Shown: positions 1,870 through 26,205 of the stretch, piece by piece
Layout: each line of letters opens with the position of its first letter
Position numbering within the stretch: the stretch's first letter is position 1
Assembly: GCA_032128375.1 (NCBI GenBank)
Contig: JAQBGU010000037.1
Span: 1 to 54,574 of the forward strand
Source of the DNA: Deltaproteobacteria bacterium
Lineage (GTDB): Bacteria > Myxococcota_A > UBA9160 > SMWR01
DNA: 54,574 bases
Direction of reading: 5' to 3'
Translations under genes and position numbers: made by a program
Notes under the pieces: model-generated
Told to the model about the DNA's origin: nothing
Database searches by the model: none
Seen by the model: the letters and a program-made list of their open reading frames with translations, nothing else

Positions 1870-2168
1870 TTGGTGGCCTCCTGGTCTTGTGTTTTGCGTT
1901 TCGCGTTTCGTGTTGGCTCGAGTTCGCGGCGCGCTTGGATGTCCGGCGCCACTCTACCCGCCGTCCGTGGTCAGTGTCCACGCCGGCGAGCATGGAGTGG
2001 CCCTCGAAAGGCTGAATGTGTTGGAAATCGGACGATTCGTATCTGCACCGTGTGCTCGCGGCGTCCCACGGTTCCCGGACGAGCTGTGCCGCGAGTATGC
2101 GGGCCGGCTCGGCACGGTAGCGGTATCCTGCTGCCCCGATTCGCAACTGGCTTGTTTTTGGAGATCCA

Positions 2169-5613: not shown

Positions 5614-5662
5614 CGGTGCGCGGTGATGTACCGGGAATCAAATCGGAGTGAGAAGTGAATCG

Positions 5663-7385: not shown

Positions 7386-7811
7386 TCAGTTCCTGATGAA
7401 CCCGGGAATGTCTCCGGGCTCCGGGTCTAGGCACTCGAGCAGACGCCGAGGTGTATCCAGATGGATATCCCGTCTCCGGATCACGTTCTCCTGAAGAGGT
7501 GCCCGGCTGCCTCCGCGCACTACCACACCAATCGGCGTGCGGCAGAGGACCTCGATGACCCCGACAGGAAAAGTCGGCGTTGGAATTCTCACCTGGTAGA
7601 ACCCGTTGCCGTCGGTGACGTCCTCTCCCAGCAAGAACGGTACAGGACCGACGGTAACGTTCTCGTAGATTACAACGACGGCTCCTTCGATGGGAACACC
7701 GCTTCGCTTATTGAAGACGTGGCCCTCGATATCCGCCGTCTGGGCGACGGCGCTGCCGGACCACAGGGTCGCGGCGCTGCAGATCAATACGATCATCCTG
7801 CGAAGACGCAT
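7386..7811 (-). CDS. Small secreted hypothetical protein (carboxypeptidase-regulatory/transthyretin-like beta-sandwich)
   Basis: Signal peptide ending AVA-Q; IEGHV..KRSGVPIEGAVV...TDGNGFY pattern; GAGGA RBS. Confidence 0.65.
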   Translation of the reverse strand: MRLRRMIVLICSAATLWSGSAVAQTADIEGHVFNKRSGVPIEGAVVVIYENVTVGPVPFLLGEDVTDGNGFYQVRIPTPTFPVGVIEVLCRTPIGVVVRGGSRAPLQENVIRRRDIHLDTPRRLLECLDPEPGDIPGFIRN

Positions 7812-8076
7812 GCGGATTCCTCTGTTCTCTAGGGCTTGGCTCCCCGAGTGTAGGCCGTGACTCGGATCCCGCTGCCCAACTCGTTCGTAGCCAACTGCCA
7901 GTGTCATCGAGATTATCCCGCCCCGTGCTGCCGGATACTGTTCCTTTGGGATGTGAGCTGTCAGCCAGAATCTCTCGTTGCGACCGGGAGCTGGGGAGTG
8001 GTGGTAGCTGACTTGTCGCGATGTGATACAAGCGCGACGGGCGCTGGATAACCGGAGCAACGCCGTGCTCGCCGTC

Positions 8077-9537
8077 CTACAGCTTCCGCTGGTAGAAGCG
8101 ATCGTCGACCGCCATCCGCGGGAAGTCGGGTGGAAGCTCGCCTGCATCGATGCGTTCGAAGCCGGATTTTTCGTAGAAGCGGTGTGCGGCGCGCAAGATC
8201 GAGAGCGTTCCGAGGGTGATCGAATCGATGCCTGTTGCGCGTGCGTGAACCGAGACCGCGTCGAGTAGGCGTCCGGCCAGCTGGGTACCGCGGTAGTCGC
8301 GCTGCACGAACATTTTGCGGATCGCACCCGCGTGTGGCGCGAAACGAATCATTCCGATCGTGCCCACCACGCGCGTTGCGTCGAGCGCCACGAAGAAGCA
8401 GCCCTGTTTCTGGTATGCGCGCGGGATATCGTCGAGATCGGGCTGGTCGGCGGCCGTGATCGGAATGCTGAACTCGCCCGCCTGAATGCCCAGAATCAAA
8501 TGGACGACCTGCGGTTGGTGAGCGGGCTCGAACGCCACGATCCGAACCGGTCCATCGAACGCAGCCTCGCGCCGGCCGCGGCTGTGTTCTGTGTCGAGTT
8601 CAATCTGCATCCACACGTCGGCTCGTTCGTGGACGAACGCCGCATTCGGGGATTGGCGAAATCCCAGGCGTTTATACAGCCGTAGCGCGGGGGCGAGGCC
8701 GCTGTGGGTCTCCAACACGACGCGGCTCGCTCCCAGCTGGCGTGCGCGGCGCAGAGCGACGCGTCCCAGATGAGCTCCGATCCCCGTGCCGCGGCTGTGC
8801 TCATCAACAGCCATTTTGACCAGCTCCATTTGACCGGCCCCTCGCGGCACCAAGCCGCAACAGCCGACGATTCGGCCGAGTTGGCGGGCCATCAAGACAG
8901 CCCCGCCCGGGTCGATGATCTCGCGCTGGGGATCGTCCAGGATCTTGCGATCGAGGGCGTCGACTGAAAACCAGCGCTCGAGCCAGGCCACGTTCAGCCG
9001 CGTGAAGTCGGTCTGGTGTTCGGGCTCGAAGTCGACGATTTCGAGCGGCACATCATTTCGCGTTCGCGTACGCGCCAGCACCCGGTCTGCGAGGCCTTGC
9101 TGGTCGAGAGCGCGCTCGAAGGCAGCGATGGCCGAAAGCAGGTCGTGCCCGGAGTCGTCGATCAAGGCTTGTGTGGCGGTCTCGAAATCGTTCCAGACCG
9201 GTCGCAGCGCCGGAAGCATCGCGCGCGCGGGCTCGGTCAAGCGCAGTCTGCGGCGTCGTTCGTCGCGCGGGTCTCGGGTCGACGACACCAGGCGCTTTCG
9301 CTGCAGCTCGCGGACCAGTTGGCTCACGGCCGCGTGGCTGACGCCGAGCGCATCGGCCGCCTCGCGGACGGACAGCGGCGAGCGGTAGCTCAGCAGGTAG
9401 AAGAGGGTGAACCAGCGCGGTTCGAAGTCGAAGGCCTGTTCGCGGTAGACGCGTGCGCCGTCTGGAAACATCCGATCGGTCAGCCTGCGCAGTCGGCTGC
9501 CGAGAGCGAGCGATCCCAGTGACTGAAGAGTATCCAT
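8077..9537 (-). CDS. MarR-type winged HTH fused to two GNAT acetyltransferase domains
   Basis: ALGSRLRRL, SHAAVSQ, DERRRRLRLT (MarR); KMAVDEHSRGTGIG and LYKRLGF (GNAT1); RKMFVQRDYRG and FYEKSGF (GNAT2). Confidence 0.88.
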   Translation of the reverse strand: MDTLQSLGSLALGSRLRRLTDRMFPDGARVYREQAFDFEPRWFTLFYLLSYRSPLSVREAADALGVSHAAVSQLVRELQRKRLVSSTRDPRDERRRRLRLTEPARAMLPALRPVWNDFETATQALIDDSGHDLLSAIAAFERALDQQGLADRVLARTRTRNDVPLEIVDFEPEHQTDFTRLNVAWLERWFSVDALDRKILDDPQREIIDPGGAVLMARQLGRIVGCCGLVPRGAGQMELVKMAVDEHSRGTGIGAHLGRVALRRARQLGASRVVLETHSGLAPALRLYKRLGFRQSPNAAFVHERADVWMQIELDTEHSRGRREAAFDGPVRIVAFEPAHQPQVVHLILGIQAGEFSIPITAADQPDLDDIPRAYQKQGCFFVALDATRVVGTIGMIRFAPHAGAIRKMFVQRDYRGTQLAGRLLDAVSVHARATGIDSITLGTLSILRAAHRFYEKSGFERIDAGELPPDFPRMAVDDRFYQRKL

Positions 9538-10408: not shown

Positions 10409-11650
10409 GTGTACGAAGAATATGATCCCTACGATGACACCTGGAGGGCCGACCCCTATCCGGTGTTTCGCGCATTGCGCGACGAGCGTCGCGTCCACTA
10501 CGCGGCCGATTCCAAGAGCTGGTGCGTCTCGCGCCACGAAGACGTCGCGTACGTGTTTCGGCACCCCGAGCTCTTCTCATCGAAAACGCAGCAATTCCTG
10601 ATGCCGATGGAAGGCCGAAATCTGATCACGGGTCTTCGCCAGGCGGCTCGATTCATGTGGCAGATGAAGGTTGGCCCCCGGACGATGCGCGACTCGCGAA
10701 TGTTGATCCAGGAAGACGGGGATATTCACGCCGCGATGCGCGCGTTCGTGAATCGTGGCTTTACACCTCGCAACATCGCTCGACTCGAAAAGCGCATCGC
10801 CGAGATCGTTGCGACGTGTATGGACGATATGCGCGGTCGCGATTCGTTCGACCTGGTGACCGAACTGAATGTCCCTTTGCCCGTCACGGTGATCGCCGAG
10901 ATGCTCGGCGTCGAGCCCGAGCGCCGCGAACAATTCAAGACCTGGAGCGACAATTTGATCCAGGGGGCATCCAATCCCGATCAAGCGCTCAGCAAGCAGA
11001 TGATCGACACGATGGTCGAGATGCGCGGCTACCTGCAGCCGATCGTCGATGCGCGGCGCGCGAATCCCACCGATGACCTGATCAGCACCCTGGTCATGAC
11101 GGACGGGGAGGGCGCCCTGAGCGATTTCGAGGTCTTCTTCTTCTTCGTGCTGTTGCTCGTGGCGGGTAACGAAACGACCACGAACCTGCTCGGCAACGCA
11201 GTCGATGCGCTGCTCGACCATCCCGATATGCTCGCGAAAGTACTCGCCGATCCGGGTCTGGTTCCGGCAGTCATCGAAGAGACGCTGCGTTGGGATTCGC
11301 CCGTCCAGTCCATCACCCGGCGCACTGAACGCGACGTCGAATTGGCTGGCACCCAGATTCCCGCGAACGCGAAGGTCATTGTGTTGATCGGTTCGGCGAA
11401 CCGCGACGAACGTTTCTTCGCGGACCCGGATCGCTTCGACCTGGGTCGTGATACCCGGGGCCACCTGGCATTCGCAGTGGGCAAGCATTTTTGTCTGGGA
11501 GCGTCGCTCGCGCGGCTCGAAGCGCGAGTTGCACTGGAGGCTTTGATTCCGGAGCTCGGCCAACTGACCCGGCTGCGTCCGGAACGCGAATTTCTCGATT
11601 CGTTCATCATTCGCGGTCGGTCGCGCCTGGAGCTGCGCCGGACTGGATGA
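10409..11650 (+). CDS. Cytochrome P450
   Basis: I-helix LLVAGNETT, EETLR (ExxR), SANRDE, heme motif FAVGKHFCLG; GAGGAG RBS before GTG. Confidence 0.96.
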   Translation: MYEEYDPYDDTWRADPYPVFRALRDERRVHYAADSKSWCVSRHEDVAYVFRHPELFSSKTQQFLMPMEGRNLITGLRQAARFMWQMKVGPRTMRDSRMLIQEDGDIHAAMRAFVNRGFTPRNIARLEKRIAEIVATCMDDMRGRDSFDLVTELNVPLPVTVIAEMLGVEPERREQFKTWSDNLIQGASNPDQALSKQMIDTMVEMRGYLQPIVDARRANPTDDLISTLVMTDGEGALSDFEVFFFFVLLLVAGNETTTNLLGNAVDALLDHPDMLAKVLADPGLVPAVIEETLRWDSPVQSITRRTERDVELAGTQIPANAKVIVLIGSANRDERFFADPDRFDLGRDTRGHLAFAVGKHFCLGASLARLEARVALEALIPELGQLTRLRPEREFLDSFIIRGRSRLELRRTG

Positions 11651-11678: not shown

Positions 11679-12590
11679 GTGAGCCCGACGACCGGAAGGG
11701 CTGAAGTGCGCGGGCGATATCGTCTGGGACTGGGGTTTGGGCTGGGTGCGGTCGCGGCCGCCGCCGCGTTTTTCATACTTCGTGGAAGTGATTCTGATTC
11801 AGTTCCGGTTTCGCCCAGCGATCCTGGCCAGATCGTCGATGCCGAGCGCGGGCCCGCGCGACGCGCGACGCTGCTCGACTCCGCCGCTTCGGATGATCGG
11901 CTCGCGCAACTGACTCACGTAGCTGGCATGGCCGTTGACTCGCGCGCAGACCGAGTCGGCCCAATCGACCGCCCCGACTCCTTCGAGCTACCGGAGCGCA
12001 AGCAATCGGATGCCGACGAGCTTGGCGGCGCGAACGCGATCGTCTTGAACAGGCTCTCGATCGCATCCGGCAGCCCCAGCATCGAATTGTCTGGCTTCGA
12101 CCCACTGGGTCCGCGCGATCTCGTTGCATGGAGACTCAAGAATGGCCGGCGTGCGATCATTGCGCGCGGCTCGAGCGACCGGGCCGGTGAGATCCACTTT
12201 CCGGAACTGGTGGCGCCTCGCAATGGGCTGGTGATTGTGGTGACCGCAGCCGACAGCAAGCCGGAAAATCCGGGCGCTTCGTCAGCGCGACGCTCGAATG
12301 GATTGCTTCCGTCGGCGCCCGATGCGGTGGTCTTGGATGCGTACGGCTCCGAGTACGCGGTACGCATCGTTCCCAGCGAGGCGACCGGCGAGATTTGGCT
12401 CGCAGATGCGGAGGGTCGGGTGTTCGCACAGTACGCGGTTCCCAACACCCCCATCGCGTCGAGCCGGGTGCTGGATGTGACGCTCGGCCTGCTCGCCGAT
12501 GACACCCACGTACTCGTCGCGCACGTGCTCGCGGATGGCCGCAGGTCGGATTGGCGGGAAATCGAGCTGGGAACGCCGGACGGAGGCTGA
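11679..12590 (+). CDS. Hypothetical membrane-anchored protein
   Basis: 303-aa ORF with N-terminal hydrophobic segment and coding-like composition; no family recognised. Confidence 0.6.
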   Translation: MSPTTGRAEVRGRYRLGLGFGLGAVAAAAAFFILRGSDSDSVPVSPSDPGQIVDAERGPARRATLLDSAASDDRLAQLTHVAGMAVDSRADRVGPIDRPDSFELPERKQSDADELGGANAIVLNRLSIASGSPSIELSGFDPLGPRDLVAWRLKNGRRAIIARGSSDRAGEIHFPELVAPRNGLVIVVTAADSKPENPGASSARRSNGLLPSAPDAVVLDAYGSEYAVRIVPSEATGEIWLADAEGRVFAQYAVPNTPIASSRVLDVTLGLLADDTHVLVAHVLADGRRSDWREIELGTPDGG

Positions 12591-12613: not shown

Positions 12614-12642
12614 TTGACCCGAGCGTCCAGCCCGTGTATACG
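12614..12642 (+). promoter_or_regulatory. Putative sigma70 promoter of the B12 operon
   Basis: TTGACC (12614-12619), 17-nt spacer, TATACG (12637-12642), just upstream of the riboswitch. Confidence 0.55.
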
Positions 12643-12667
12643 AACCAGACAACTAAATATGGAAATG

Positions 12668-12974
12668 CAGCCGGGTGCTCTGCGTGGGCCGGAGAATGAA
12701 TTTTCGGAACTCTTTCTTGTACTACGCAGCGCAAAAGGGAAGGCCGTGAAAATCGGCCGCGGTCCCGCCACTGTGAATCGGTAGCACCACCCGCAACATG
12801 TCACTGAACGAGGGTTTGGGAAGGCGCGGGTGGGGCGATCGCGAATCGGTCGTTCGAAGCAACTGTTCTTGACGAACAGTTCGTTAGTCGCAAAGAACGG
12901 CGCGCTTCGCGGAGAACCGTGAGCCAGGAAACCTGCCCGGCCGCTACGCAATCAGCTCTTCGCGGAAATGGAGC
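12668..12974 (+). ncRNA. Cobalamin riboswitch (class I/AdoCbl-type) including P13 kissing hairpin
   Basis: GGGTGC...AAAAGGGAA-GGCCGTGAAAATCGGCC-GCGGTCCCGCCACTGT...TCACTG...TGGGAAGG...GAGCCAGGAAACCTGCC; L5 CCGCGG (12757-12762) complementary to L13 TCGCGG (12960-12965); upstream of a TonB-dependent receptor. Confidence 0.92.
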
Positions 12975-13081
12975 GGTGCAGCGGCGTTTCGATCATTCGA
13001 CTGGCCCGCCATTCGGGGCAGGTGAACCGACCGCTCCAGCGCTTCGTCCGCGGACGGCAATTGACAGGCGTTGGAGCTTCG

Positions 13082-15217
13082 ATGCTTCACAAATTTGCGC
13101 CCCGCCGCGTGGAAACGGCGGAAGGCTTGGGTCGGACGTGCGATCGGCTGCGGGTACTCGTGACCTGCATCGTGCCGGCCGTCTGGCTTGCGATCGGCTC
13201 GGCGTCCGCGGAGCCCATCGATTCCGAACTGGAGGCGGATCGCGAACCGCATGTCGAAGAAACGACCGAGGTCACGGTCGAAGCCGGAATCGAAGCCATG
13301 CCCAGCAGCTTGACGACCGATCCGGTGGTGTTCGACGCGATCCGGCCCGTGGATCTGCCCGACGATCCGTCTGCGTTTACCACGGTGATCGAAATGAAAG
13401 CCTACGAAGGCGAGTCGAAGGATCTCGCGGAGATTCTCGGCAACAGCGTTGGCGTGCAGGTGCGGCGCTTCGGGGGCACGAGCGATCGCTCCGAAATTTC
13501 GATTCGAGGTTCCACATCGAGCCAGGTCGTGATCCTGCTCGATGGCGTGCGGCTGAATTCCGCCCAGTCCGGCGGTGTCGATCTTTCGACGGTGCCGGTC
13601 GATCTGGTCGAGCGCATCGAAATCTCCCGCGGCGGCGGCTCGGCGCAGGCGGGAAGCGACGCGATTGGCGGTGTCGTTCACATCATCACGAAACGGCCGG
13701 GTGGCCCGCCGCGTACGACCGCCGCATTTTCCGGCGAGTCATTCGGAACCTGGACAGGTTCTGCGAGCCAATCGGGTAGCGCGCTCGGGACGGAATTCGC
13801 GCTCGGGTACACCGGCTTCACCACCGACGGTGACTGGGAATTTCAGGCGGTGGATCGAGAGATCCGGTCCGGCGCTGGCGGTTTCGACTTGCCGGGGCCC
13901 GACGGCGACATCAAACGAGTGAACAACGACAGCGAATCCCACGCGGCCCAACTTCAGCTTGGGGGTGACCTCGGCAGTTGGGGACATGTCGGTCTGATCG
14001 ACAACTTCTTCTTCAGAAGCGCCGGCCAACCTGGGACGGACATCCTGGAGCAGAACCGAACGGCGCACCAGCGTCGCACGCGCAACGTGGCCAGCCTGCG
14101 GGTCGAAGCCGCCAAGGTGACACCGCTCGAACTCGACGGCGATTTTCGGGTCTTTCACCGATTCGATCGGAGTCGATTCACGGACAGAAACCCGATCCTC
14201 GGACCTGCAATCGACAGTGACGACCGCAACCACTCGATCGGTATTCGCGCAGGTTTGAGTGGGGGCTCGACGATCGGCTTTGCCGAGCAGGTTCTGTCGG
14301 TCGACGGAGAGCTCCGCAACGACCTGCTGTTCGCAGATTCGCAGCGTGACCGGAATCGTCGCACGCTTGGCCTGGTCGTGCAGGACGACGTCAGCCTGTT
14401 CGACGCAGCGATTCGTTTGATTCCTGCGCTGCGTATCGACGACACGCAGGGGTTCGGTACAGAGTGGATCCCGCGCCTCGGGGTGATCGTTCGTCCGCTG
14501 GCGTGGCTCGAATTCAAGGGAAACGTGGAAAGGTCGTATCGCGTTCCAAACTTCGACGAGCTGTATTTCAACGAAGGCGGCATTCGCGGGAACCCGAACC
14601 TCGACCCCGAGGACGCCTTCAACGCGGACGTCGGTTTCGAGCTCCGTTTCGAAAAGCTCGGCCCCGCTACCGACATGTGGCTGGAGTTTGCAGCGTTTCG
14701 CAACGAGATAGACGATTCGATCATCTTCGGCGTTCGACCGCTCGGCGTGGTGATCGCCGAAAATACCGGCCGGGCCCGAGCGGACGGAATCGAGTTGGCC
14801 GGTGGCTTTCGGCTATTCGACTGGGTCGGTGTCGGGGCGAATTGGACAACCCTCGACGCCGAATTGAGGCCCTCTGGACGTCCGCTTCAGGGGCGCGCGC
14901 GTACCGAGTATTTCGTGCGGACCGAGATCGGTCCAGCGGACCCACTGTTCAAACTGGTTGGCGAAGTCGCCTACAGGAGCGCGGTTCCCGTCAGCGCGTC
15001 GGGCAATACGAGCTTGGAGTCGGGTTCGAACACGACCTATGGATTGAGTCTCGTCGTTGACGTGGTGCAGATCCCCGGCCTGGCCGCGCTGATCCCCGGT
15101 AGTCATCTGCGCCTGTCGGCCGCGGTGACGAATCTGACAGACGAAAGCGTGCGCGACGCGCAGTTCTTCCCGCAACCGGGACGAACGCTCGCGTTTCGCG
15201 CGGAATGGGAGAGATAG
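13082..15217 (+). CDS. TonB-dependent receptor, BtuB-like cobalamin transporter
   Basis: Plug motifs ISIRGS, VVILLDGVRLN, VERIEISRG, AIGGVVHIITK; barrel SYRVPNFDELY, GNPNLDPE; C-terminal PQPGRT...W; riboswitch upstream. ATG 12968 lies inside P13, whereas ATG 13082 has a GGAG RBS. Confidence 0.9.
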   Translation: MLHKFAPRRVETAEGLGRTCDRLRVLVTCIVPAVWLAIGSASAEPIDSELEADREPHVEETTEVTVEAGIEAMPSSLTTDPVVFDAIRPVDLPDDPSAFTTVIEMKAYEGESKDLAEILGNSVGVQVRRFGGTSDRSEISIRGSTSSQVVILLDGVRLNSAQSGGVDLSTVPVDLVERIEISRGGGSAQAGSDAIGGVVHIITKRPGGPPRTTAAFSGESFGTWTGSASQSGSALGTEFALGYTGFTTDGDWEFQAVDREIRSGAGGFDLPGPDGDIKRVNNDSESHAAQLQLGGDLGSWGHVGLIDNFFFRSAGQPGTDILEQNRTAHQRRTRNVASLRVEAAKVTPLELDGDFRVFHRFDRSRFTDRNPILGPAIDSDDRNHSIGIRAGLSGGSTIGFAEQVLSVDGELRNDLLFADSQRDRNRRTLGLVVQDDVSLFDAAIRLIPALRIDDTQGFGTEWIPRLGVIVRPLAWLEFKGNVERSYRVPNFDELYFNEGGIRGNPNLDPEDAFNADVGFELRFEKLGPATDMWLEFAAFRNEIDDSIIFGVRPLGVVIAENTGRARADGIELAGGFRLFDWVGVGANWTTLDAELRPSGRPLQGRARTEYFVRTEIGPADPLFKLVGEVAYRSAVPVSASGNTSLESGSNTTYGLSLVVDVVQIPGLAALIPGSHLRLSAAVTNLTDESVRDAQFFPQPGRTLAFRAEWER

Positions 15218-16786
15218 ATGAGCCACAACAGCGTCAGCAAATTCCCTCTGTTCGCAGCGATCGGCGTGGCCGCCGCGCTTTGTCTGGGCAGCAAGTGCGG
15301 AGGCGGCAGTGGGGGAGGCGGCGGGAAAGCGACGATCGTCATCGAGAGCCCCGACGATCGCTGTACGGCGGTCGGCGACGCCTTTCCGCCGGGCTTCGCG
15401 TTCGCAGGCATCGGTGCGCTGCTGTGGGTCGTCGATTTCCCCGCGACGCTGGTCCCGTTCGACGTCAGCGCAAAGACCCCCCAGGCGCCCATCGGACTCG
15501 CTCCGTTCGCGCTGCCGGTCGACAGCGATTCGGACGGGCGCGCCGATTTTCCGCTTCGGCCCGTGTTGGACGACATCGAGATCGATTCGCCCGAACTCGC
15601 ACTGGTCACGGCGAGCTCTTACGAAGAAGTGCTGTTCTTTCGGCCGGACACCGGAGCGCTGATCCCCTTCGACGTATCCGTCGCGGCTTCGTTCGAGAAG
15701 GCCGACAACCCGTTGTTGCCCGATCCCGGAACGCTGGAATCGAGAACCGGATTGTCGACATTCGCTTGTGTGCGTCCACCCGCCGGCGCACTCGATTCGC
15801 GCGGCGATCCGATCGCGATGTCGGTTCCGGCAGCCGGCTACTGCGACCCCGCGACACCCAGTTACCGATCGTCGTTTACGTCCGGTGCGCAGATCGTCGG
15901 TGATCGCTTGTTCGTGTCGTCATCGAACCTGGGTGACGACCCGGGCACCCTGAACACGCAATTCCTGCCGGCCTCTGTCGAGGTCTACGACATCGACCCG
16001 GCGTCGAATCCACCGACAGTGGAGCCCAATGAGTTCGTCCCGGTGATTCTGACGACCGGTTTCAACGCGACTCACGTGACGCGCTACGAGGTCGGATCGC
16101 GTCGGTTCGCATTGATCACCATCACTGGCGCACTCGGAATCGTTCGAGACGATCCGGACACCGACGAGGTCGAGGCGTTCGGGCTCCCGCTGACACAAGC
16201 CGCCATCGACGTGATCGATGCGGATACACTCGAACTGGTCGCCAGCTATCCGCTCGGGTTGTCTTCACCGAGTACATCGGGAGTGACGGTCGACCCGACC
16301 GGTCGCATCGGCGTCGTGGGTAGCTTGATCGGTCGCGCGCTGCTGGCGATCGATCTGTCACCGCTCGAGTCGCTGCCCGGCTCGGTTGCGCAGCCGGTCG
16401 ATCTCGCCGGTGCGGTGATCTTCGATGCGGACGAGGGCTTCCCGATTCCTGCGCGCGCGGGTGGCGCACCTGTGTCCGCGTGCCCTGGGTTCGTTTCCGA
16501 CGTGGCGTTCGATGGCGGCACGATCTACGCGACGGAGGCGTGCGATGGCACGATCGCCGTGATCGATGTCGATCTGGACGGCAACCCGCCGGTGCCTGTC
16601 CCCGCCGATCGGTTCACCGCGGTGGAGTTGGTTCCCTTCGCGTCACCGGTAACGGCGTCGACGTTTGGCGATCGACGCCAGCCGGGTGCGATCGCCGTTC
16701 GCCCGGGGCCGCCGGGCCCGGGTCCCGAAATTGTGTTCCTGGTCGGAGACCCCGATGGCGAGTTATGCGGAGTGGACGCGATTTGA
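15218..16786 (+). CDS. Putative lipoprotein, beta-propeller-like (YncE/YVTN-type repeats), in the B12 operon
   Basis: Signal peptide ending LGSK-C plus Gly linker; blade-like strands LFVSSSN, IDVIDADTLELVASYPLG, IYATEACDGTIAVIDV; starts right after the receptor stop. Confidence 0.65.
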   Translation: MSHNSVSKFPLFAAIGVAAALCLGSKCGGGSGGGGGKATIVIESPDDRCTAVGDAFPPGFAFAGIGALLWVVDFPATLVPFDVSAKTPQAPIGLAPFALPVDSDSDGRADFPLRPVLDDIEIDSPELALVTASSYEEVLFFRPDTGALIPFDVSVAASFEKADNPLLPDPGTLESRTGLSTFACVRPPAGALDSRGDPIAMSVPAAGYCDPATPSYRSSFTSGAQIVGDRLFVSSSNLGDDPGTLNTQFLPASVEVYDIDPASNPPTVEPNEFVPVILTTGFNATHVTRYEVGSRRFALITITGALGIVRDDPDTDEVEAFGLPLTQAAIDVIDADTLELVASYPLGLSSPSTSGVTVDPTGRIGVVGSLIGRALLAIDLSPLESLPGSVAQPVDLAGAVIFDADEGFPIPARAGGAPVSACPGFVSDVAFDGGTIYATEACDGTIAVIDVDLDGNPPVPVPADRFTAVELVPFASPVTASTFGDRRQPGAIAVRPGPPGPGPEIVFLVGDPDGELCGVDAI

Positions 16787-16843
16787 GGCGAGCCAGGGCA
16801 GACGCAGGCGGGCGTGGCTGAACTGGGCCAACTGGAGGTCGGA

Positions 16844-17671
16844 ATGCGCGAAATGACAATCAGCGGTGTGGCGGCATGGGTAGTGCTGCTCGGAATCAGT
16901 GGAGCGATTGGAGCCGCCCAGGCCGCGGCGGACCCATACGTGGACTCGGTGGTCAGCTACATCCAAGGCGCCAACGGCGGATTCAACGCCGGCGCGCTTC
17001 CGGGGATCGTACTCGGCAGCCCCGCTGGCAATGGACTGTTTCTGGGCGGGCTCGATGTGGTGTCGCTCGGACGCTCGGGCCGCATCGACTTGCGTTTCGA
17101 CGACAACGTCATCGTCGATGGTCCGGGCGTCGATTTCACGGTCTTCGAAAACGCATTTCTCGAGATCGGTGCGGGTAACCTCACCGTCCCACCCTTTGCC
17201 GAACCCGGTCGTATCAGTGTCAGCCAGGATGGAACCGAGTGGTTCGCGTTCCCCTGTACGCTGGAACCCCTGGCCGCTCCCTACTGGCCGGGCTGCGCCG
17301 GTGTGTACCCGGTGTTGTCAGATGGGACGCTCGCTACACCCGATGCAACGATTCCGACCTCGCTACCGATCGAAGATCTGGTCGGCGTATCGGTCTTCAC
17401 GATCGAAGCGCCGCCGGGTTCCGGCGGGGATTCGTTCGATCTGGCGGACGTGGGCTTGGGTTGGGCGCGTTATGTGCGGATCGAAGCCGCGGATTTCGAT
17501 GTGAACGTTGTCGGCAGCGGCAATTCCGGGTTCGACCTCGATGCGGTGGTTGCCGTGAACTCGGCGGTTTCGGCCCCGGTTCCCGCGATGGCGGCGCCGG
17601 CGCTGTGTTTGTTGGCGGTCGCTTTCATCGCAGTCGGCAGAGTTTGTCTGCGCGGAACTCGAGGGCTGTGA
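16844..17671 (+). CDS. Cell-surface protein with BtuH/LIC13355-like domain and IPTL-CTERM-like sorting tail
   Basis: Signal AAA-D; VSLGxxG.I.L.F...IVDGPGVDFTVFENAF; GGDSFDLADVG..ARYVRI..GFDLDAV; tail VPAM + hydrophobic helix + basic residues; GGAGG RBS. Confidence 0.72.
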   Translation: MREMTISGVAAWVVLLGISGAIGAAQAAADPYVDSVVSYIQGANGGFNAGALPGIVLGSPAGNGLFLGGLDVVSLGRSGRIDLRFDDNVIVDGPGVDFTVFENAFLEIGAGNLTVPPFAEPGRISVSQDGTEWFAFPCTLEPLAAPYWPGCAGVYPVLSDGTLATPDATIPTSLPIEDLVGVSVFTIEAPPGSGGDSFDLADVGLGWARYVRIEAADFDVNVVGSGNSGFDLDAVVAVNSAVSAPVPAMAAPALCLLAVAFIAVGRVCLRGTRGL

Positions 17672-18093
17672 TGAATCGCAGTCAGCTGTGCAGTTTGCTC
17701 GCGTGGGCGATGATTTCGCTCGGATCGATGTGCTGGGTGGTGCCGGCGCGTGCCGACAATTTGCCCGATGTATCGGCGCACCCCTCTGGTATCGAGGATG
17801 CGAGTCTGCGCGGACCGAGCCTCTCGCAGCGTCTCGCCGAAATCCGACAGCGCGTCCAGCGAGCGAAGACTTACCCGTCGATTGCACGCAAACGTGGAGT
17901 CGAGGGTCAAACCAGTGTCGCGTTCGAGATTGATCGATCCGGCGCGCCGCACGACATCGTCACGGTGGAATCGTCCGGCCATGGCGCGCTCGACCGCGCC
18001 GCGCTGCAAGCGGTCGAACGCGCCGGTGTGTTGCCGTGGGTCTATGGTCGGGTCACTGTTCCGGTCCGGTTCACGCTGCGTGAATCGGACTGA
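17671..18093 (+). CDS. Short energy transducer TonB (C-terminal domain with N-terminal hydrophobic segment)
   Basis: YPSIARKRGVEG, SSGHGALDRAALQAV, VPVRFTL; TGATG coupling with the upstream gene. Confidence 0.85.
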   Translation: MNRSQLCSLLAWAMISLGSMCWVVPARADNLPDVSAHPSGIEDASLRGPSLSQRLAEIRQRVQRAKTYPSIARKRGVEGQTSVAFEIDRSGAPHDIVTVESSGHGALDRAALQAVERAGVLPWVYGRVTVPVRFTLRESD

Positions 18094-19139
18094 CGGAGCG
18101 GTTGGCGTCGGCGCCGTAGCGCCAGTCCTACCACGCCCCCGGCAAGCAGGAGTGCGGTGCCCGGTTCGGGAATTGCCGAAAGCACCCAGATCCGGTTCTC
18201 CTCACCCAGCGCTGCGAAACCGTCGATCGCGTAAATGGTTCCGTCAGCGGCCGCGAACAGTCCCGCCGCGAAACCGAAGCCACTGGCCACGAGAGAGCTG
18301 GTTCCGGTGATCGGGTCGACGCGCAGGATCGAGCCACCGCTGCTGATCAGCAGCGAACCATCGGGCGCGTATTCGGCGTCGAACAGGCCGCCGGCGTAAC
18401 TCCCGATGAAGCTGGCAACATCGGTCGGAGACCCGACCGGCACCGAACTGAGATCGCCGCCGCCAGCCAAGAGCGCGTTTCCGATGAACAGCGATGTGCC
18501 ATCGGTCGCGAGGCCCGCTGAGAACTCGAGCCCGGTCTGAATCGTCGTCACGACCTGGGTCGAGAGGACGACCTGCAGTACGACACCCAGTGGCGGAAAG
18601 AACCCCGATGCGTCGCTGACGAACACCGTGTCACCGGTGGGGTCGCTCGGGTCGAGGACGATATCCGCGTAGCCGGGCACCGACCCGGCGGCCAACAGCT
18701 CGAGTCCCAGCGCGGCGGCCGGGCTGCCCGGGCTCCCGAACGGATTGGGGACCTCGTAGAGCGTGTCGCCGGTACTGGCGCCCAGAAAGTTGTCGCCGAC
18801 GAGTAGTCGGTCGTTGACGGCGTCGTATGCGAATCCGCCGAGAGCGCTGAACCCGTCGGCCAATACAGTCTCACCACCGCCATCGATTCGGACGATCGAC
18901 TGCGCGCCGAAACTGCCGACCGCCGCAAACACGGCCCCGCCAACCTCGAGTACATCTCCAGCCGCGGGACCCGAGGTTGGGATGAAACTGACGTTGTAGC
19001 TACCCGAAGTGGGTGTCGCCGATGCGATCGATGCGATCGATGCGATCAACAGGGACAACAAGGACAAAAACGACCGCAAGGCTGTGACGGCGACCCGCGA
19101 TCCAATGGTTGATTCTTCTCCCTTTTTGTTACGCAGCAT
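18042..19139 (-). CDS. PEP-CTERM exosortase substrate, beta-propeller-like, B12-riboswitch controlled
   Basis: IPEPGTALLLAGGVVGLALRRRR tail; signal peptide ending ASA-T; repeated blade-like motifs (VLADGFSALGGFAYD, IQTGLEFSAGLATDG, LVASGFGFAAGL); start uncertain. Confidence 0.82.
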   Translation of the reverse strand: MLRNKKGEESTIGSRVAVTALRSFLSLLSLLIASIASIASATPTSGSYNVSFIPTSGPAAGDVLEVGGAVFAAVGSFGAQSIVRIDGGGETVLADGFSALGGFAYDAVNDRLLVGDNFLGASTGDTLYEVPNPFGSPGSPAAALGLELLAAGSVPGYADIVLDPSDPTGDTVFVSDASGFFPPLGVVLQVVLSTQVVTTIQTGLEFSAGLATDGTSLFIGNALLAGGGDLSSVPVGSPTDVASFIGSYAGGLFDAEYAPDGSLLISSGGSILRVDPITGTSSLVASGFGFAAGLFAAADGTIYAIDGFAALGEENRIWVLSAIPEPGTALLLAGGVVGLALRRRRQPLRQSDSRSVNRTGTVTRP

Positions 19140-19256
19140 GCGATTCCTTCCATGCACCCGTACGCGGGGTGCGTGACCTGCCATTTTGGAGCTCTCGCAT
19201 TCGGGAGAATCTGCGCTCGAAGGCGCCACTTTGATCGGGGCCAGCGGCCCGTCCCG

Positions 19257-19530
19257 GTTCCCTTTCGCGAGGAACTCCGCCCATTGGCCCAAGTTGGGCC
19301 CGGCGTTGGGCAGGTCTTCCGGCTGGGGCCTTCACTCCGATCGCCTTCCCGCCCGGCTGGGAGCCGAGCAGTGGCCGATGACCGAGAGTGTCGCGAACCG
19401 AAGATTCGATCCGCGGACCCATTACGGCGGCGCGTCCGCGGTGGAATTCCCGACGGTGCAACCGACGGGGTACCACACTTCCCTTTTGGTCCTCTCCCGC
19501 CGGCAAGCCGGAATGGAGCGGACACCCAAA
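19257..19530 (-). ncRNA. Second cobalamin riboswitch including P13 kissing hairpin
   Basis: Minus strand: GGGTGTCC...GGACCAAAAGGGAA-GTGTGG...AATTCCAC-CGCGGACGCGCCGCCGTAA...GCCACTG...GGGAAGG...CAGCCGGAAGACCTGCCC; P1 TTGGG/CCCAA; P13 GTTCC-TCGCGAAAG-GGAAC. Confidence 0.9.
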
Positions 19531-19539
19531 ACCGAATCG

Positions 19540-19569
19540 ATACTAACGCGCTGGCGCGCTGACTGGCAA
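19540..19569 (-). promoter_or_regulatory. Putative sigma70 promoter for the second riboswitch
   Basis: Minus strand TTGCCA (19569-19564), 18-nt spacer, TAGTAT (19545-19540), about 10 nt before P1. Confidence 0.55.
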
Positions 19570-19848: not shown

Positions 19849-22377
19849 TTAATATGGATAGGCGAGCCGTTGGAACAGAAGTCGATTGCGGATATCGCGA
19901 GACGAGGAGCCCGCCAGTATTTCGAATGCCCCCGGCTGCGCGTTCCAGTCATGTCGCTGCACGTCCCACCATGCGAAAGCGCGTTCGGGGACCGTCAACG
20001 CAACGCGGCGGGTTTCGCCCGCTTCGAGGAAGATTTTCGCAAAGGCCGCGAGTTCGCGGTCGGGCCGTGGCACGCGTGGATGGATTTCGCGCAAATACAG
20101 CTGAACGACTTCGGCACCGGCGCGCTGGCCTGTGTTGGTCACGTCGATTTCGATGCCGAAATCCGCCCCGATTCGCGGAATCGAAGTCGCAAGTAATTCG
20201 CCGTAGGCAAACGTCGTGTACGAAAGGCCGTGCCCGAACGGCAGTCGCGGCTCGATCTGGCGGGTTTCCCTCCCTCGAAAAGAGCCTGAAGCGGAGCCAG
20301 CAGCGTAGCCCCGGTAGCCGACGAACACGCCTTCACCGTAGCGAAGCTCATTGTCTCGGCCCGGGTAGTAGGCATGAGCGGGCGTATCCTCGAGTGCTCT
20401 CGGAATCGTGATCGGGAGCTTGCCAGAGGGATTCGCGTCGCCGAACAGCACGTCGCAAAGCGCGTCGCCGAACTCTTGGCCGGCGAACCAGACCTGGAGC
20501 GCGGCGGGTACCGAATCCAGCCACTCTGTATTGACGGGGCTACCCGCGTTGACGACAACGATGGTGTTGGGATTTGCGCGGGCGACTTTCTCGATGAGTT
20601 CGGATTGCGCTCCGGGCAGCGCCATGCTTTCGCGGTCGTTGCCCTCGGTCTCCCAATCGTCGTTGGTCCCGACGACCAACACGACCGTATCGGCCGTCTC
20701 CGCGGCGCGAACCGCATCGGCGAGCGGGTCGGCGGACATCGGGGGAAGCACGCCGAATTGAATCCCGGCCATCTGGGGATCCGCCGGTCGTTGAAAGTCG
20801 AACTGGATCGGGTAATCGTCGCCGGCCTCGAGGTCGACATCGGCGCGCTGCTCCGTAGAACCGTTTGCATAGAACGACTCGCCAGGCGTCTGCGAACTCC
20901 AGTTGTCGATCAGCGGCTTTCCGTCGAAGTGCATCCGGCTCTTGCCGGCACTCATCAGCCCGAACGTGTGCCGACCGGACGTTTCGGCTGTGAAGCTGCC
21001 GGATACTCGCACTGAGAACTGGCGGGTCGTCAGAAAGTCGGCACCGAAGCCGTCGAACCAGGTCATCTTCGAGCGTGTTGAAACGCGTCTGCGCACCGGC
21101 GTGCCGGCGAAATCCGGGTTGTCGAAATACTCGATCGCGAGGCCGGGGCGATCGATCGGGTCGGGTGCTTGGTTTGGAACGAGTTGGCGAGAGTCGAATG
21201 CCGGCAGGTACTTGTGGATCAGACAACCGACTTCGAACACAACCTCGGCACGGCCTGCCAGCCGTGTTTCGATTGCGGCCAGCGGGTGAACCTGGTGTTG
21301 CGGTAGCGCCGCCGAACTGCCGCCACCCTGGAGCCGACCGATTTTCGCATTGGGACCGATCACCGCGACTCTGCGAAGCGAGTTGATATCGAGTGGCAGC
21401 AGCGCTGTGGCCGAATCGGCTGCCGCATCGTTTTTGAGCAGCACGCATCCTTCGATGGCGGCGCGACGCGCGAGGGCCCGATTCTCGGGCTTGTCGTCGG
21501 TGCGCTCGACTGGCTCGCCGGGTGCATCGAAGCGCCCGGTGCGGACCAGCAGTCGCAGCAGCCGGCTGACCTTGTCATCCAGTTCGGTTTCGCTGACGCG
21601 TTTGCTGCGGACGGCCTCGAGCAGTTTGTCGCCCATGCTTCGCGCGGGGCCGGGCATTTCGAGATCCAGGCCCCCGTTCGCATTCTCCACGGTGTGCAGC
21701 GATGCGCCCCAGTCGCTGATCACCACGCCGTCGAAGCCCCACTGCTGTTTCAAAATGTCGATGAGCAGTTTTCGGTGACTGCTCGCGAACACACCGTTGA
21801 TTCGGTTGTAGGCCGACATCACCGACCACGCACCGCTCTGCTTCACGGCGATTTCGAACGGGCGCAAATAGACCTCGCGCAGCGTTCGCTCGTCAACTTC
21901 GGAGCTCACGACGTGGCGTTTGTATTCCGTGTCATTGCAGACGAAATGCTTCAGGCAGGCTGCGACCTGCTTCGATTGAACGCCCGCCGTGAACGCGGCC
22001 GCGAGCAGTCCGGTGAGCAGCGGATCTTCCGAATAGCACTCGAAGCCGCGCCCGCCGATGGGGGTTCGCTGGAGATTGATGGTCGGACCCAGAAGTACCT
22101 GGGCGCCCTTCGAGCGCGCTTCGTCTCCGAGGGCCGCGCCGACCGCCTCGAGCAACTCGACGTTCCAACTCGCGCCGAGCGCAACCCCAACCGGAAAGCA
22201 GCAGGCGCGCTCTCCGCTGCTGGCATCCCCGCGGGCAGCGTTTGGCCCGTCGGTCATCTTGAACGCGGGGATTCCCAGCCTTTCGATACCTGTCGAATGC
22301 CAGGGCCCGGACCCTGCCACCATCGCCACTTTCTCTTCCAGGGTCAGCTTCTCGAGCATCGCCGCGACGCGGTGCAT
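19849..22377 (-). CDS. GH3 beta-glucosidase with PA14 insertion and FnIII-like C-terminal domain
   Basis: MTDGP, GRGFECYSEDP, LKHFVCND, MSAYN, ISDW nucleophile motif, ETEGNDR, PFGHGLSYTTF. Confidence 0.95.
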   Translation of the reverse strand: MHRVAAMLEKLTLEEKVAMVAGSGPWHSTGIERLGIPAFKMTDGPNAARGDASSGERACCFPVGVALGASWNVELLEAVGAALGDEARSKGAQVLLGPTINLQRTPIGGRGFECYSEDPLLTGLLAAAFTAGVQSKQVAACLKHFVCNDTEYKRHVVSSEVDERTLREVYLRPFEIAVKQSGAWSVMSAYNRINGVFASSHRKLLIDILKQQWGFDGVVISDWGASLHTVENANGGLDLEMPGPARSMGDKLLEAVRSKRVSETELDDKVSRLLRLLVRTGRFDAPGEPVERTDDKPENRALARRAAIEGCVLLKNDAAADSATALLPLDINSLRRVAVIGPNAKIGRLQGGGSSAALPQHQVHPLAAIETRLAGRAEVVFEVGCLIHKYLPAFDSRQLVPNQAPDPIDRPGLAIEYFDNPDFAGTPVRRRVSTRSKMTWFDGFGADFLTTRQFSVRVSGSFTAETSGRHTFGLMSAGKSRMHFDGKPLIDNWSSQTPGESFYANGSTEQRADVDLEAGDDYPIQFDFQRPADPQMAGIQFGVLPPMSADPLADAVRAAETADTVVLVVGTNDDWETEGNDRESMALPGAQSELIEKVARANPNTIVVVNAGSPVNTEWLDSVPAALQVWFAGQEFGDALCDVLFGDANPSGKLPITIPRALEDTPAHAYYPGRDNELRYGEGVFVGYRGYAAGSASGSFRGRETRQIEPRLPFGHGLSYTTFAYGELLATSIPRIGADFGIEIDVTNTGQRAGAEVVQLYLREIHPRVPRPDRELAAFAKIFLEAGETRRVALTVPERAFAWWDVQRHDWNAQPGAFEILAGSSSRDIRNRLLFQRLAYPY

Positions 22378-24207: not shown

Positions 24208-26205
24208 TCAATCCTCGTGGTCAGATGTCGGCAGCGTGTAAGCGATCACGTAGTCACCCAGCTTGCTGCCGATTCCCACATGCCCTCCAGGTGCAATGAC
24301 CAGGTACTGCTTGCCGTCGGAGCGAAGTTTGTAGGTGACTGGACCGGCGTGCAGCCCGGCTGGCAGAGCGAAATGGCTGATGACGCGACCGGTGTCGACA
24401 TCGTGAGCGCGCATTCTCAGATCTTCGTTGCCCGCGTGGAAAACCAATCCGCCGGCGGTGACCAGTGGTGAGCCAAAACTCATCAGCCCTTCGACCATGC
24501 CGTCATCCGATTCGCCGGTCGGAACACTCCAGGCGATTTCGCCCGCGCTGACATCGATGGCGACGAGGCTTCCCCACGGTGGCTTGTTGCACGGGACGCC
24601 GTCTTCGGCGAAGGTCGTGCGTCCGTTGAGCGGCGACAGGAAGTAGCGCAACCCGGTGCCGCGGCCGCGCAGCACGTACCACGCGGCGCGCAGCCCGATT
24701 CGCAGTGGCCGCACGTGGTTCACATCGAAGTTCGAGTCCGGAAGCTTCTTCAACCGGATCACATGTGCGAGGTTCGCTGCCGGGATGAACAGCCGCCCGC
24801 TGCGGGGATCGTAGGCCGATCCGGACCAGTTCGCGCCCCCTGCGGTGAACGGATACAGGATCGAACCTTTTTCGTTCGGAGGTGTAAATAGCCCGTCGTT
24901 GCGCAGGTTTTTCAGCTTTTTGATGCAGGCTTTGTGATGTGCATGGCTGAACATCGCGACGTCGTCTTCGGTCAATCGTTGAGGCACGAACGGCGGCGGA
25001 CGGGTCGGCATGGGCTGAGTCAGCGACGTTCTTTCGCCCGGGACACCAGCCTGTGGTACGGGTCGCTCCTCGACGGGGAACAGCGGCGCACCGGTGTCGC
25101 GGTCCAACACGAACAGGAAGCCCGACTTGGTTGCCTGGGTGACGGCGTCGATGGACTTGCCGTCGCGCTCGACCGTTACCAGCACAGGGGGAGCGGCCAG
25201 ATCGTAGTCCCACAGGTCGTGATGGACCGTCTGGAAGTGCCATTTGCGCCGGCCGGTTTGCACGTCGAGCGCGACGACCGAATCCGAGAACCAGTTGTTG
25301 CCCGGCCTGTCGCCGCCATAGAAGTCGGGTGTCGCGGTGCTGACCGGTAGGAAGACCAGGCCGCGATCGGGGTCGGCGGTGATCGTCGACCATACGTTGG
25401 CGCCGCCGGAATGCACCGCGCTGCCGTCTTCCCAGGTTTCGTATCCCGTTTCACCTTCGTGTGGGATCGTGTGGAAGGTCCAGCGCAATGCACCGCTGCG
25501 CGCGTCGTAGGCGCGCACGTCGCCGGGTGGCGCTGCGCGACGGATCGTATCTGCAATCGACGAGCCGACCACGACCACGTCGCCGACGACCGTGACAGGA
25601 GAGGTCACGTTGTACTCCCAGCGGTCCACGATACCCGTCAGGCCGTCGAACAGATCGACGCTCCCGTCGTGTCCAAAACCCGGGCAGTACTGGCCGGTGG
25701 CCGCATCGAGGGCGATCAGGCGGGCATCCAGGGTCGCGAGGAACACCCGCGGCCTGCAGCTCACAGGCGGGCCGCTATCGCTCGAGCGCCAGTACGCGAC
25801 CCCGCGATTGATGATCATGTTTGCAAACGTCCGGTCGAGGTCGATTTCGGGATCGAACGTCCAGAGTTCGCCGCCGGTTTCGGGATCGAGCGCGATGACG
25901 CGGTTGTACGGCGTCGTGAATATCAGCCGGCCGTCGACGACGAGCGGTGTAGTCTCCATCGCCGTGCCCGTATTGACGCGAAGCGGGAACCTTCCCTCGT
26001 GGAAGTCGCCGTGGCGGTAGGTCCACGCGACTTCGAGCGACGCGACATTTCCGCGGTGGATGTCGTCCAGTGGTGAGTAGCGACCGCCGCCGGCTGCGCC
26101 TTCGGTATGTGTCCAGCCCGCCGTCTTCGGAGCGGCCGTTGCCGGGGCTACCGAGACGGTCATCATTGCGACGAGGGCAATGGCCGCGCCGAGAATCGCA
26201 CGCAT
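24208..26205 (-). CDS. PQQ-dependent dehydrogenase (quinoprotein glucose/quinate dehydrogenase family, soluble form)
   Basis: RYSPL..I...NV..LEVAW, WHFQTVHHDLWDYD, GGANW, PCNKPPWG, GKQYLVIAPGGH; signal peptide. Confidence 0.93.
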   Translation of the reverse strand: MRAILGAAIALVAMMTVSVAPATAAPKTAGWTHTEGAAGGGRYSPLDDIHRGNVASLEVAWTYRHGDFHEGRFPLRVNTGTAMETTPLVVDGRLIFTTPYNRVIALDPETGGELWTFDPEIDLDRTFANMIINRGVAYWRSSDSGPPVSCRPRVFLATLDARLIALDAATGQYCPGFGHDGSVDLFDGLTGIVDRWEYNVTSPVTVVGDVVVVGSSIADTIRRAAPPGDVRAYDARSGALRWTFHTIPHEGETGYETWEDGSAVHSGGANVWSTITADPDRGLVFLPVSTATPDFYGGDRPGNNWFSDSVVALDVQTGRRKWHFQTVHHDLWDYDLAAPPVLVTVERDGKSIDAVTQATKSGFLFVLDRDTGAPLFPVEERPVPQAGVPGERTSLTQPMPTRPPPFVPQRLTEDDVAMFSHAHHKACIKKLKNLRNDGLFTPPNEKGSILYPFTAGGANWSGSAYDPRSGRLFIPAANLAHVIRLKKLPDSNFDVNHVRPLRIGLRAAWYVLRGRGTGLRYFLSPLNGRTTFAEDGVPCNKPPWGSLVAIDVSAGEIAWSVPTGESDDGMVEGLMSFGSPLVTAGGLVFHAGNEDLRMRAHDVDTGRVISHFALPAGLHAGPVTYKLRSDGKQYLVIAPGGHVGIGSKLGDYVIAYTLPTSDHED

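Follow-up and report, generated by a model that had tools for sequence, protein, structure and literature searches.

What are two cobalamin riboswitches, facing each other from opposite strands, doing on either side of a set of accessory genes of which some match no named protein family? This question is raised by a locus on contig JAQBGU010000037.1 (assembly GCA_032128375.1) of a Deltaproteobacteria bacterium (Myxococcota_A; UBA9160; SMWR01), which was analysed over its full 54,574 nucleotides and is hereafter called the window. The locus encodes a TonB-dependent receptor related to BtuB, a short TonB_C-domain protein and the accessory proteins that we call P2, P3, P5 and X. A sequence-only reading, made by a model from the letters and the open reading frames, had proposed a surface system that captures vitamin B12. 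Our analysis indicates that the locus is probably a two-switch B12 (corrinoid) uptake cluster, in which anchored envelope proteins likely serve the BtuB-like receptor by capturing corrinoids outside the cell and passing them on. The elements concerned are the following.

11679-12590, plus strand: protein X, 303 residues with an N-terminal membrane anchor, encoded by an open reading frame upstream of riboswitch 1.
12614..12648, plus strand: promoter-like hexamers TTGACC and TATACG, 17 nucleotides apart, read from the sequence.
12719-12936, plus strand: cobalamin riboswitch aptamer 1 (RF00174, 72.7 bits, E 4.7e-16, model positions 20-171).
13082..15217, plus strand: BtuB-like TonB-dependent receptor (Plug PF07715, E 6.8e-21; barrel PF00593, E 3.7e-34).
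15218..16786, plus strand: P2, 522 residues, a likely lipoprotein of an unnamed family, predicted by AlphaFold2 to be a seven-bladed beta-propeller.
16844..17671, plus strand: P3 (database form P0214), secreted, 275 residues, with a conserved domain of ~210 residues and a C-terminal hydrophobic and basic tail.
17671..18093, plus strand: short TonB_C-domain protein, 140 residues (PF03544, E 1.1e-16; TIGR01352, E 8.4e-17).
18042..19139, minus strand: P5, 365 residues, a PEP-CTERM protein (PF07589, TIGR02595) predicted by AlphaFold2 to be a six-bladed beta-propeller; its database form, P0102, starts at 19139.
19292-19544, minus strand: cobalamin riboswitch aptamer 2 (RF00174, 66.7 bits, E 2.4e-14, full model 1-189).
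19540..19569, minus strand: promoter-like site TTGCCA and TAGTAT, 18 nucleotides apart, which ends where aptamer 2 starts.

With covariance-model scores far above the RF00174 gathering score of 31.5 bits, the two inward-facing cobalamin riboswitches proposed from the sequence are borne out. They lie 6.4 kb apart, are the sole matches of an Rfam scan of the whole window and are distinct in sequence, as had also been claimed, the plus-strand copy carrying an insertion of ~75 nucleotides and the minus-strand copy two insertions. A search of the organism's own genome (6.2 Mb in 249 contigs, 91% complete) found no RF00174 copies beyond these two. The folds of both expression platforms have a stability indistinguishable from that of shuffled sequences (z of -1.2 and -1.0), and no intrinsic terminator adjoining either aptamer was found by a consensus scan. 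The sequence-only reading had also placed a promoter ahead of each switch. On the plus strand, the hexamers are weak and fail the consensus scan, and this promoter is not retained. On the minus strand, the site passes the scan with 9/12 matches, but it is the single passing site in 8.4 kb, a count equal to the 1.0 that shuffles would yield by chance.

The tie between the accessory genes and B12 emerges most clearly from related loci, 33 of which were gathered with the P2 profile from one-genome-per-species contigs, mostly metagenome-assembled genomes of Myxococcota and Deltaproteobacteria. The receptor gene stands directly upstream of P2 in all 33. A same-strand RF00174 riboswitch lies upstream in 21 of them and, because the remaining 12 hold less than ~350 nucleotides upstream of the first cluster gene, every locus able to show a switch shows one; four extra loci taken from genomes all carry it too. 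The other members recur less regularly: P3 or a P3-like protein in 26 of the 33 loci, X in 15, a DUF4465 protein in 13 (by tblastn), a TonB_C protein in 12 (on either strand) and P5 in 10 (within the same operon). The usual gene order is riboswitch, receptor, P2, X, P5, P3 and TonB_C. In these relatives, the first gene after the switch often encodes a protein of ~280 residues that combines a DUF4465 domain, matched by Pfam with E values of 1e-41 to 1e-51 in the six proteins tested out of six, with a PEP-CTERM tail. According to PMC13398666, BtuH and BtuJ bind B12 through the beta-jellyroll DUF4465, for which binding was shown in eight divergent members; the family is present in Myxococcota, among eight clades, and its genes co-locate with TonB-dependent receptor and beta-propeller genes. 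No protein of the window matches DUF4465 (PF14717), and none was found in the rest of its genome.

The same association reaches beyond the family of the window. Five distant loci, from a sister family and one further family and with 28-31% identity to the window's proteins, all combine a riboswitch, a receptor, a P2-like and a P3-like gene. Four of the five display two divergent riboswitches, one heading the receptor operon and the other a P3-like PEP-CTERM gene alone, and a second switch was also met in a locus of the window's own family, as listed below.

L043, 3157-3556: back-to-back cobalamin riboswitches on opposite strands, less than 100 nucleotides apart.
L044, 3101-3573: same arrangement.
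L045, 9602-10057: same arrangement.
L047, 9363-9779: same arrangement.
L036, 3566-4570, minus strand: a cobalamin riboswitch, the second one there, located past the TonB_C gene and heading a 189-residue PEP-CTERM protein with no other family match (window's own family).

Taken with the window, the sister-family loci and L036 indicate that doubled switches recur, and that P2, P3 and P5 each come directly under a cobalamin switch in some lineage. The homologues of the accessory proteins are linked to B12 loci, as the capture proposal implied, since P2 adjoins the receptor throughout and the switch is present in all 21 testable loci. Strong support for tying all the accessory proteins to B12 comes from the synteny of P2, the ten loci with P5, the switch proper to P3-like genes and the PEP-CTERM DUF4465 proteins of the relatives.

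Other genes were noticed around the distant loci. In L043, a 521-residue open reading frame after the P3-like gene (776-2341, minus strand) looks by eye, from its translation, like a metallophosphoesterase, and the translation of a 421-residue frame after the P2-like gene (7483-8748, plus strand) suggests, again by eye, a multi-pass membrane transporter. The distant cluster may include these two genes as well. In L046, a transfer-messenger RNA gene (5271-5629, minus strand) lies directly downstream of the P2-like gene.

What would the receptor transport? Its longest open reading frame begins at 12968, and the ATG at 13082 stands ahead of a signal-peptide-like stretch. The top NCBIfam match is TonB-B12 (TIGR01779), with 159.5 bits against a cut-off of 599.7, and the score against NF007926 is 106.7 bits against a cut-off of 836, which places the receptor outside the BtuB equivalog. 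When a profile built from 26 orthologues was compared with solved structures, E. coli BtuB came first (E 4.5e-45), followed by the colicin I receptor Cir (E 3.6e-41), while BtuB1 of B. thetaiotaomicron aligned over its full length at 1.6e-28. Its domains and profile make the protein a TonB-dependent transporter, and among characterised proteins its nearest relatives are BtuB. Co-folding of its barrel (residues 262-749) with the P2 propeller (residues 45-522), using alignments for both, gave a score of 0.28 against a mark of 0.32, which weighs neither way. The TonB_C protein begins with ~28 hydrophobic residues that may act as signal or anchor, followed by ~35 residues before the domain; as read from its sequence, it is devoid of the long proline-rich spacer with which TonB transducers span the periplasm.

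P2, the constant neighbour of the receptor, was modelled by AlphaFold2 from 44 homologues with a predicted local distance difference test (pLDDT) score of 89.6. The model aligns by VIA over ~280-308 residues, with Z of 26-28.5, to seven-bladed propellers that include YncE, Lp49 and many WD40 proteins. It has no Pfam or NCBIfam match. Its signal peptide ends in Cys27, present in 41 of 44 sequences, and a Gly/Ser linker of the GGGSGGGG type comes next; the residue before this cysteine is lysine in 15 of the 41 and serine, alanine or glycine in 17. Six further cysteines are invariant. The Cys-lipoprotein with propeller-like strands announced by the sequence-only reading is upheld as regards the propeller and the conserved cysteine, and is left less certain by a lipobox context that is atypical in part. 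BtuG is described, in PMC6143338, as a seven-bladed propeller lipoprotein encoded beside btuB and reported in Bacteroidetes alone. The likeness of P2 to it holds for the seven-bladed fold and does not extend to the family. PF16819 (BtuG, DUF5074) matches neither P2 nor P5 at E<=0.1, none of the 44 P2-family members at E<=1 and none of 36 distant P2 relatives, and a genome search at E<=1 returned nothing where the B. thetaiotaomicron control was positive. The P2 profile found nothing below E 0.099 among solved structures, with no BtuG chain at E<=10, and the BtuG structure 3DSM is absent among the listed Foldseek and VIA matches of P2 (the best 50 for VIA), an absence that neither excludes nor supports kinship because all seven-bladed propellers tie. 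An exhaustive search of 1.84 billion representatives with the P2 profile yielded 292 relatives at E<=0.001. The distant P2-like proteins are devoid of the signal-peptide cysteine, and end in TSP3 repeats in 7 of 36 cases and in dockerin modules in 2 of 36. The idea that P2 and P5 are paralogues was discarded, BLASTP finding nothing between them (best E 2.0).

Of the 201 genomes sampled from the class, 120 contain P3. Its sole family match is the LIC_13355 lipoprotein (NF033170; E 3.2e-9, 36.4 bits against a cut-off of 120), a distant resemblance so far below the cut-off that nothing was built on it. The P3 profile has no match at E<=10 among solved structures, and its comparison with the DUF4465 profile by hhalign gave a probability of 0.4%. 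In the protein atlas, P3 is matched solely by PEP-CTERM hypothetical clusters of Planctomycetota and Verrucomicrobiota (score 0.95). Its tail runs from VPAMAAPAL through a hydrophobic stretch to arginine and had been labelled IPTL-CTERM-type. This label is unsupported because the tail matches no sorting-signal model: even the 40-residue tail alone gave no IPTL-CTERM or PEP-CTERM match at E<=10. The one match of the isolated tail, 'midcut-by-XrtH' (E 0.025; 14.6 bits, where the cut-off is 45), is suggestive given that some relatives fuse P3 to TonB_C, but was too weak to be used. Among its relatives, the mode of anchoring varies between an N-terminal lipobox with an immunoglobulin-like domain and no tail, a C-terminal tail, a true PEP-CTERM and a fusion to TonB_C. 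The last type, with the P3 domain, a hydrophobic tail and TonB_C in one frame of 390-473 residues, occurs in 4 of 16 aligned homologues, all metagenomic (P0219, P0223, P0228 and P0234). These frames are either real fusions with an anchor or cleavage site in mid-protein, or gene calls across a frameshift. In the window, their counterpart is a pair of genes coupled by a TGATG. This anchor swapping, together with the invariant cysteines of P2, points to tethered, extracytoplasmic P2 and P3 families, short of proving surface exposure, and the TonB_C fusions may keep a periplasmic role of P3 in play.

For P5, the converging minus-strand protein with propeller-like features and a PEP-CTERM proposed from sequence, both the tail and the fold were recovered. 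Its tail matches PF07589 (E 1.1e-4, 22.5 bits for a cut-off of 20.7) and, taken alone, TIGR02595 (27 bits for a cut-off of 16), and its AlphaFold2 model, with a pLDDT of 88.3, is a six-bladed propeller. Foldseek relates this model to six-bladed propellers of the YWTD, strictosidine-synthase and DFPase types, with megalin YWTD propellers at the top. No SGL or NHL Pfam match was found at E<=0.1. The family has invariant aspartate, asparagine and arginine columns, and the source of one relative gives its name as 'sugar lactone lactonase YvrE'. Within the order, 17 matches were found in 16 of 121 sampled genomes, 13 of the 17 beside a P3 gene and one within 5 kb; P5 is essentially single-copy and cluster-resident there. 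Protein X has no Pfam or NCBIfam match and nothing above 0.76 in the protein atlas. Its homologue in relatives (BLASTP E 6e-15) is encoded between P2 and P5 or P3, and X constitutes a sixth cluster member lying just outside the interval that the sequence-only reading had described.

The physiology suggested by the genome is in line with uptake. It encodes, away from the window's contig, four proteins with a PF02310 B12-binding domain, one of them in a 1248-residue frame, and neither CbiC nor CobS was found at its 91% completeness. On other contigs, it holds a single FecCD permease beside a BtuF-type Peripla_BP_2 binding protein, ExbB homologues and five exosortase matches over the cut-off (PF09721). 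This gene content fits an organism that uses B12 and would be obliged to scavenge it. Genes for FecCD, ExbB and exosortases are absent from the contig of the window, every match in the genome being elsewhere, which agrees with the observation in the sequence-only reading that the window is devoid of BtuC-type, ExbB and exosortase genes.

How is the cluster arranged, and can its layout be trusted? After aptamer 1, the plus-strand unit comprises the receptor, P2, P3 and TonB_C genes, packed as tightly as the sequence-only reading had stated: P2 starts at 15218, the base right after the receptor stop, and the TonB_C ATG overlaps the P3 stop in the TGATG at 17669-17673. After aptamer 2, the minus-strand unit consists of the gene for P5, the PEP-CTERM protein. 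Contigs from three public runs span the junction between TonB_C, P5 and riboswitch 2, so the convergent layout is real and no assembly artefact of a single data set. The TonB_C and P5 frames overlap at their 3' ends by 52 nucleotides (18042-18093), which leaves no room for a terminator between them. Compared with the usual order in relatives, the window looks like a rearranged version of the cluster, with P5 inverted under its own switch and X shifted ahead of the first switch. The same runs differ in the short spacer listed first below, where the 9-nucleotide unit AACTGGGCC lies just ahead of the start of P3 and is repeated once or twice more at 16820 in contigs of runs X1 and X3; these differences are copy-number variation within the population. 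The genes that flank the cluster, also listed, belong to unrelated metabolism.

16787..16843, no strand assigned: spacer between P2 and P3, with a 9-nucleotide repeat whose copy number varies between runs (contigs of runs X1 and X3).
142-1869, minus strand: aldehyde:ferredoxin oxidoreductase.
10409-11650, plus strand: cytochrome P450.
19849-22377, minus strand: GH3 glycosidase with a PA14 insert.
24208-26205, minus strand: pyrroloquinoline quinone (PQQ)-dependent dehydrogenase.

How might such a cluster work? When adenosylcobalamin is low in the cell, both switches would permit expression, and when it is high they would shut it off. P2 could then form a BtuG-like lid on the receptor, while an exosortase, at least five of which are encoded elsewhere in the genome, would attach the exported P5 and P3 to the cell surface or matrix, where the two may trap corrinoids or keep them in reserve. 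The link between the receptor and the ExbBD systems, which are encoded at other sites, would be the short TonB_C protein, and passage of the corrinoid through the inner membrane would fall to the single BtuF/FecCD-type system, which would thereby supply MetH-type enzymes and others that depend on B12. Compared with the analogous array feeding BtuB that had been proposed from the sequence, this scheme keeps the B12 link, through the riboswitches and synteny, and the BtuG-like fold and position of P2, and abandons the IPTL anchor.

Several observations weigh against this scheme. The receptor falls far under the BtuB equivalog cut-off, and the score of Cir is almost as good as that of BtuB. By their sequences, P2, P3, P5 and X match no known B12-binding family, and the organism's own genome is without DUF4465, the one proven binder of its relatives. 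Propeller folds are generic and, as far as its model goes, P2 is equally like dozens of unrelated seven-bladed propellers. The lysine that precedes its cysteine in 15 of 41 sequences is atypical of a lipobox, and the P3 tail is without a match to any sorting-signal model. Finally, X is not visibly B12-regulated in the window because it lies upstream of the switch. Even so, the regulation and the synteny leave the capture-array reading well supported at the level of sequence: the cluster would be a BtuB-centred, switch-controlled scavenging system drawn from unnamed families and partly anchored by exosortases. A bolder extension, which we put forward tentatively and hold as a possibility that is distinctly less secure, is that one Myxococcota order built its own extracellular B12-capture machine, sequence-unrelated to the Bacteroides relay. 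It would comprise a convergent P2 lid, P3 and P5 as new corrinoid-binding families and the membrane protein X, with lipid, PEP-CTERM/exosortase or dockerin anchors being interchangeable. If this were true, exosortase sorting would be a vitamin-scavenging device and three unnamed families would gain their first ligand.

Could the import be B12-regulated while its accessory proteins sit on the inner side of the outer membrane? The accessory proteins might be periplasmic or on the inner face of that membrane, with P2 as a BtuF-like receiver, and P3 and the TonB_C protein as membrane-tethered parts for energy coupling or hand-over. The absence of a BtuF gene from the cluster would suit this arrangement, as would the common fate of lipoproteins, which face the periplasm in most diderms except Bacteroidota and spirochaetes. 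P3 speaks for it as well, being fused to TonB_C, a periplasmic module, in four of 16 aligned homologues, translationally coupled to it in the window and endowed with a tail that matches no exosortase sorting model. However, bona fide PEP-CTERM signals are found on P5, on the DUF4465 proteins of relatives and on P3-like proteins, distant P2-like proteins end in extracellular TSP3 or dockerin modules, and a BtuF-type binding protein already exists elsewhere in the genome. In addition, BtuG, with the same fold and gene position, is a surface lid according to PMC6143338 and PMC13616437. With this balance, we judge a periplasmic location rather unlikely, albeit the most credible of the alternatives to surface capture.

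The propellers may alternatively be enzymes, P5 and P2 modifying or releasing corrinoids or their carriers outside the cell before import, for instance by freeing B12 from environmental binding proteins or by remodelling analogues. The best Foldseek matches of P5 do include strictosidine synthase, DFPase and gluconolactonase-type enzymes, one of its relatives bears the lactonase label and its aspartate, asparagine and arginine columns are invariant. Yet pure binding modules share this fold, megalin YWTD propellers heading the Foldseek list, the SGL and NHL families give no match to P5 at E<=0.1, no catalytic residues were identified, and DUF4465, the sole cluster member of known activity, is a binder; an enzymatic role appears improbable to us. 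Still further down, we would be surprised if the receptor imported a non-corrinoid such as cobalt, heme or another tetrapyrrole, with B12 merely regulating it as with B12-independent isozymes. Its score far below the BtuB equivalog cut-off and its near-equal closeness to Cir and heme receptors would allow it. Against this stand the proven B12 binder DUF4465 as first gene in the relatives' operon, and BtuB, which tops both the NCBIfam and the solved-structure libraries, while cobalt for B12 synthesis would be purposeless because no CbiC or CobS was found. The preferred reading remains surface capture of corrinoids for a BtuB-like receptor. If binding by the accessory proteins is confirmed, several unannotated families would be named, new B12-binding scaffolds would be gained, and exosortase substrates would be tied to micronutrient competition in sediments.

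How does the cluster compare with what is known? To our knowledge, gut Bacteroides are the only organisms in which the surface capture of B12 by accessory proteins of BtuB has been elucidated. With the BtuB-TonB-ExbBD/BtuFCD system of E. coli, the cluster shares a riboswitch-regulated TonB-dependent corrinoid receptor, and FecCD and Peripla_BP_2 proteins are encoded elsewhere in the genome of the window. The E. coli system, in contrast, is without accessory surface proteins, exosortase substrates or a TonB_C protein encoded in the cluster. With PEP-CTERM/exosortase sorting (TIGR02595, PF09721), the cluster has in common the signal of P5, and at least five proteins of the exosortase family are encoded in the genome. 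The usual association of PEP-CTERM proteins is with exopolysaccharide loci. In the literature searched, supplements excluded, no paper ties cobalamin riboswitches to PEP-CTERM or describes this Myxococcota cluster, and the two terms met only in work on denitrifying reactors.

Closer parallels come from the DUF4465 systems found beyond Bacteroidota (PMC13398666), in that the first operon gene of the relatives encodes a DUF4465 protein. The genome of the window, by contrast, is without this domain, and, in the text of that paper, the co-located propellers belong to PF16819, of which P2 is not a member, and the term PEP-CTERM has no occurrence. The closest likeness is to the Btu loci of B. thetaiotaomicron, with the surface lipoproteins BtuG, BtuH and BtuJ, as described in PMC6143338 and PMC13616437. 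There too, the gene of a TonB-dependent receptor stands behind a cobalamin riboswitch and is followed by that of a seven-bladed propeller, with a lipoprotein signal that is probable in P2, and further anchored accessory proteins complete the regulated unit. As there, the organism is apparently unable to make B12, and the relatives of the cluster carry DUF4465, the BtuJ/BtuH domain. In contrast to that relay, P2 has no detectable sequence relation to PF16819, and P3, P5 and X are without counterpart in it. Anchoring, which is by lipid only in the Btu system, partly relies on PEP-CTERM/exosortase in the window and on dockerin in distant relatives. The window's cluster also differs by the absence of BtuFCD, the presence of a TonB_C protein and its two riboswitches on opposite strands. 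The word analogous would fit P2 with respect to BtuG, since the two agree in fold and gene position and probably in their lipoprotein-type signal, although P2 is not a PF16819 member. To conclude, this deltaproteobacterial (Myxococcota) cluster is by analogy the probable equivalent of the relay with which gut Bacteroides scavenge B12. The same logic of a switch-controlled receptor, a propeller lid and tethered catchers would thus be at work in sediment and soil Myxococcota, with other proteins and other anchoring.

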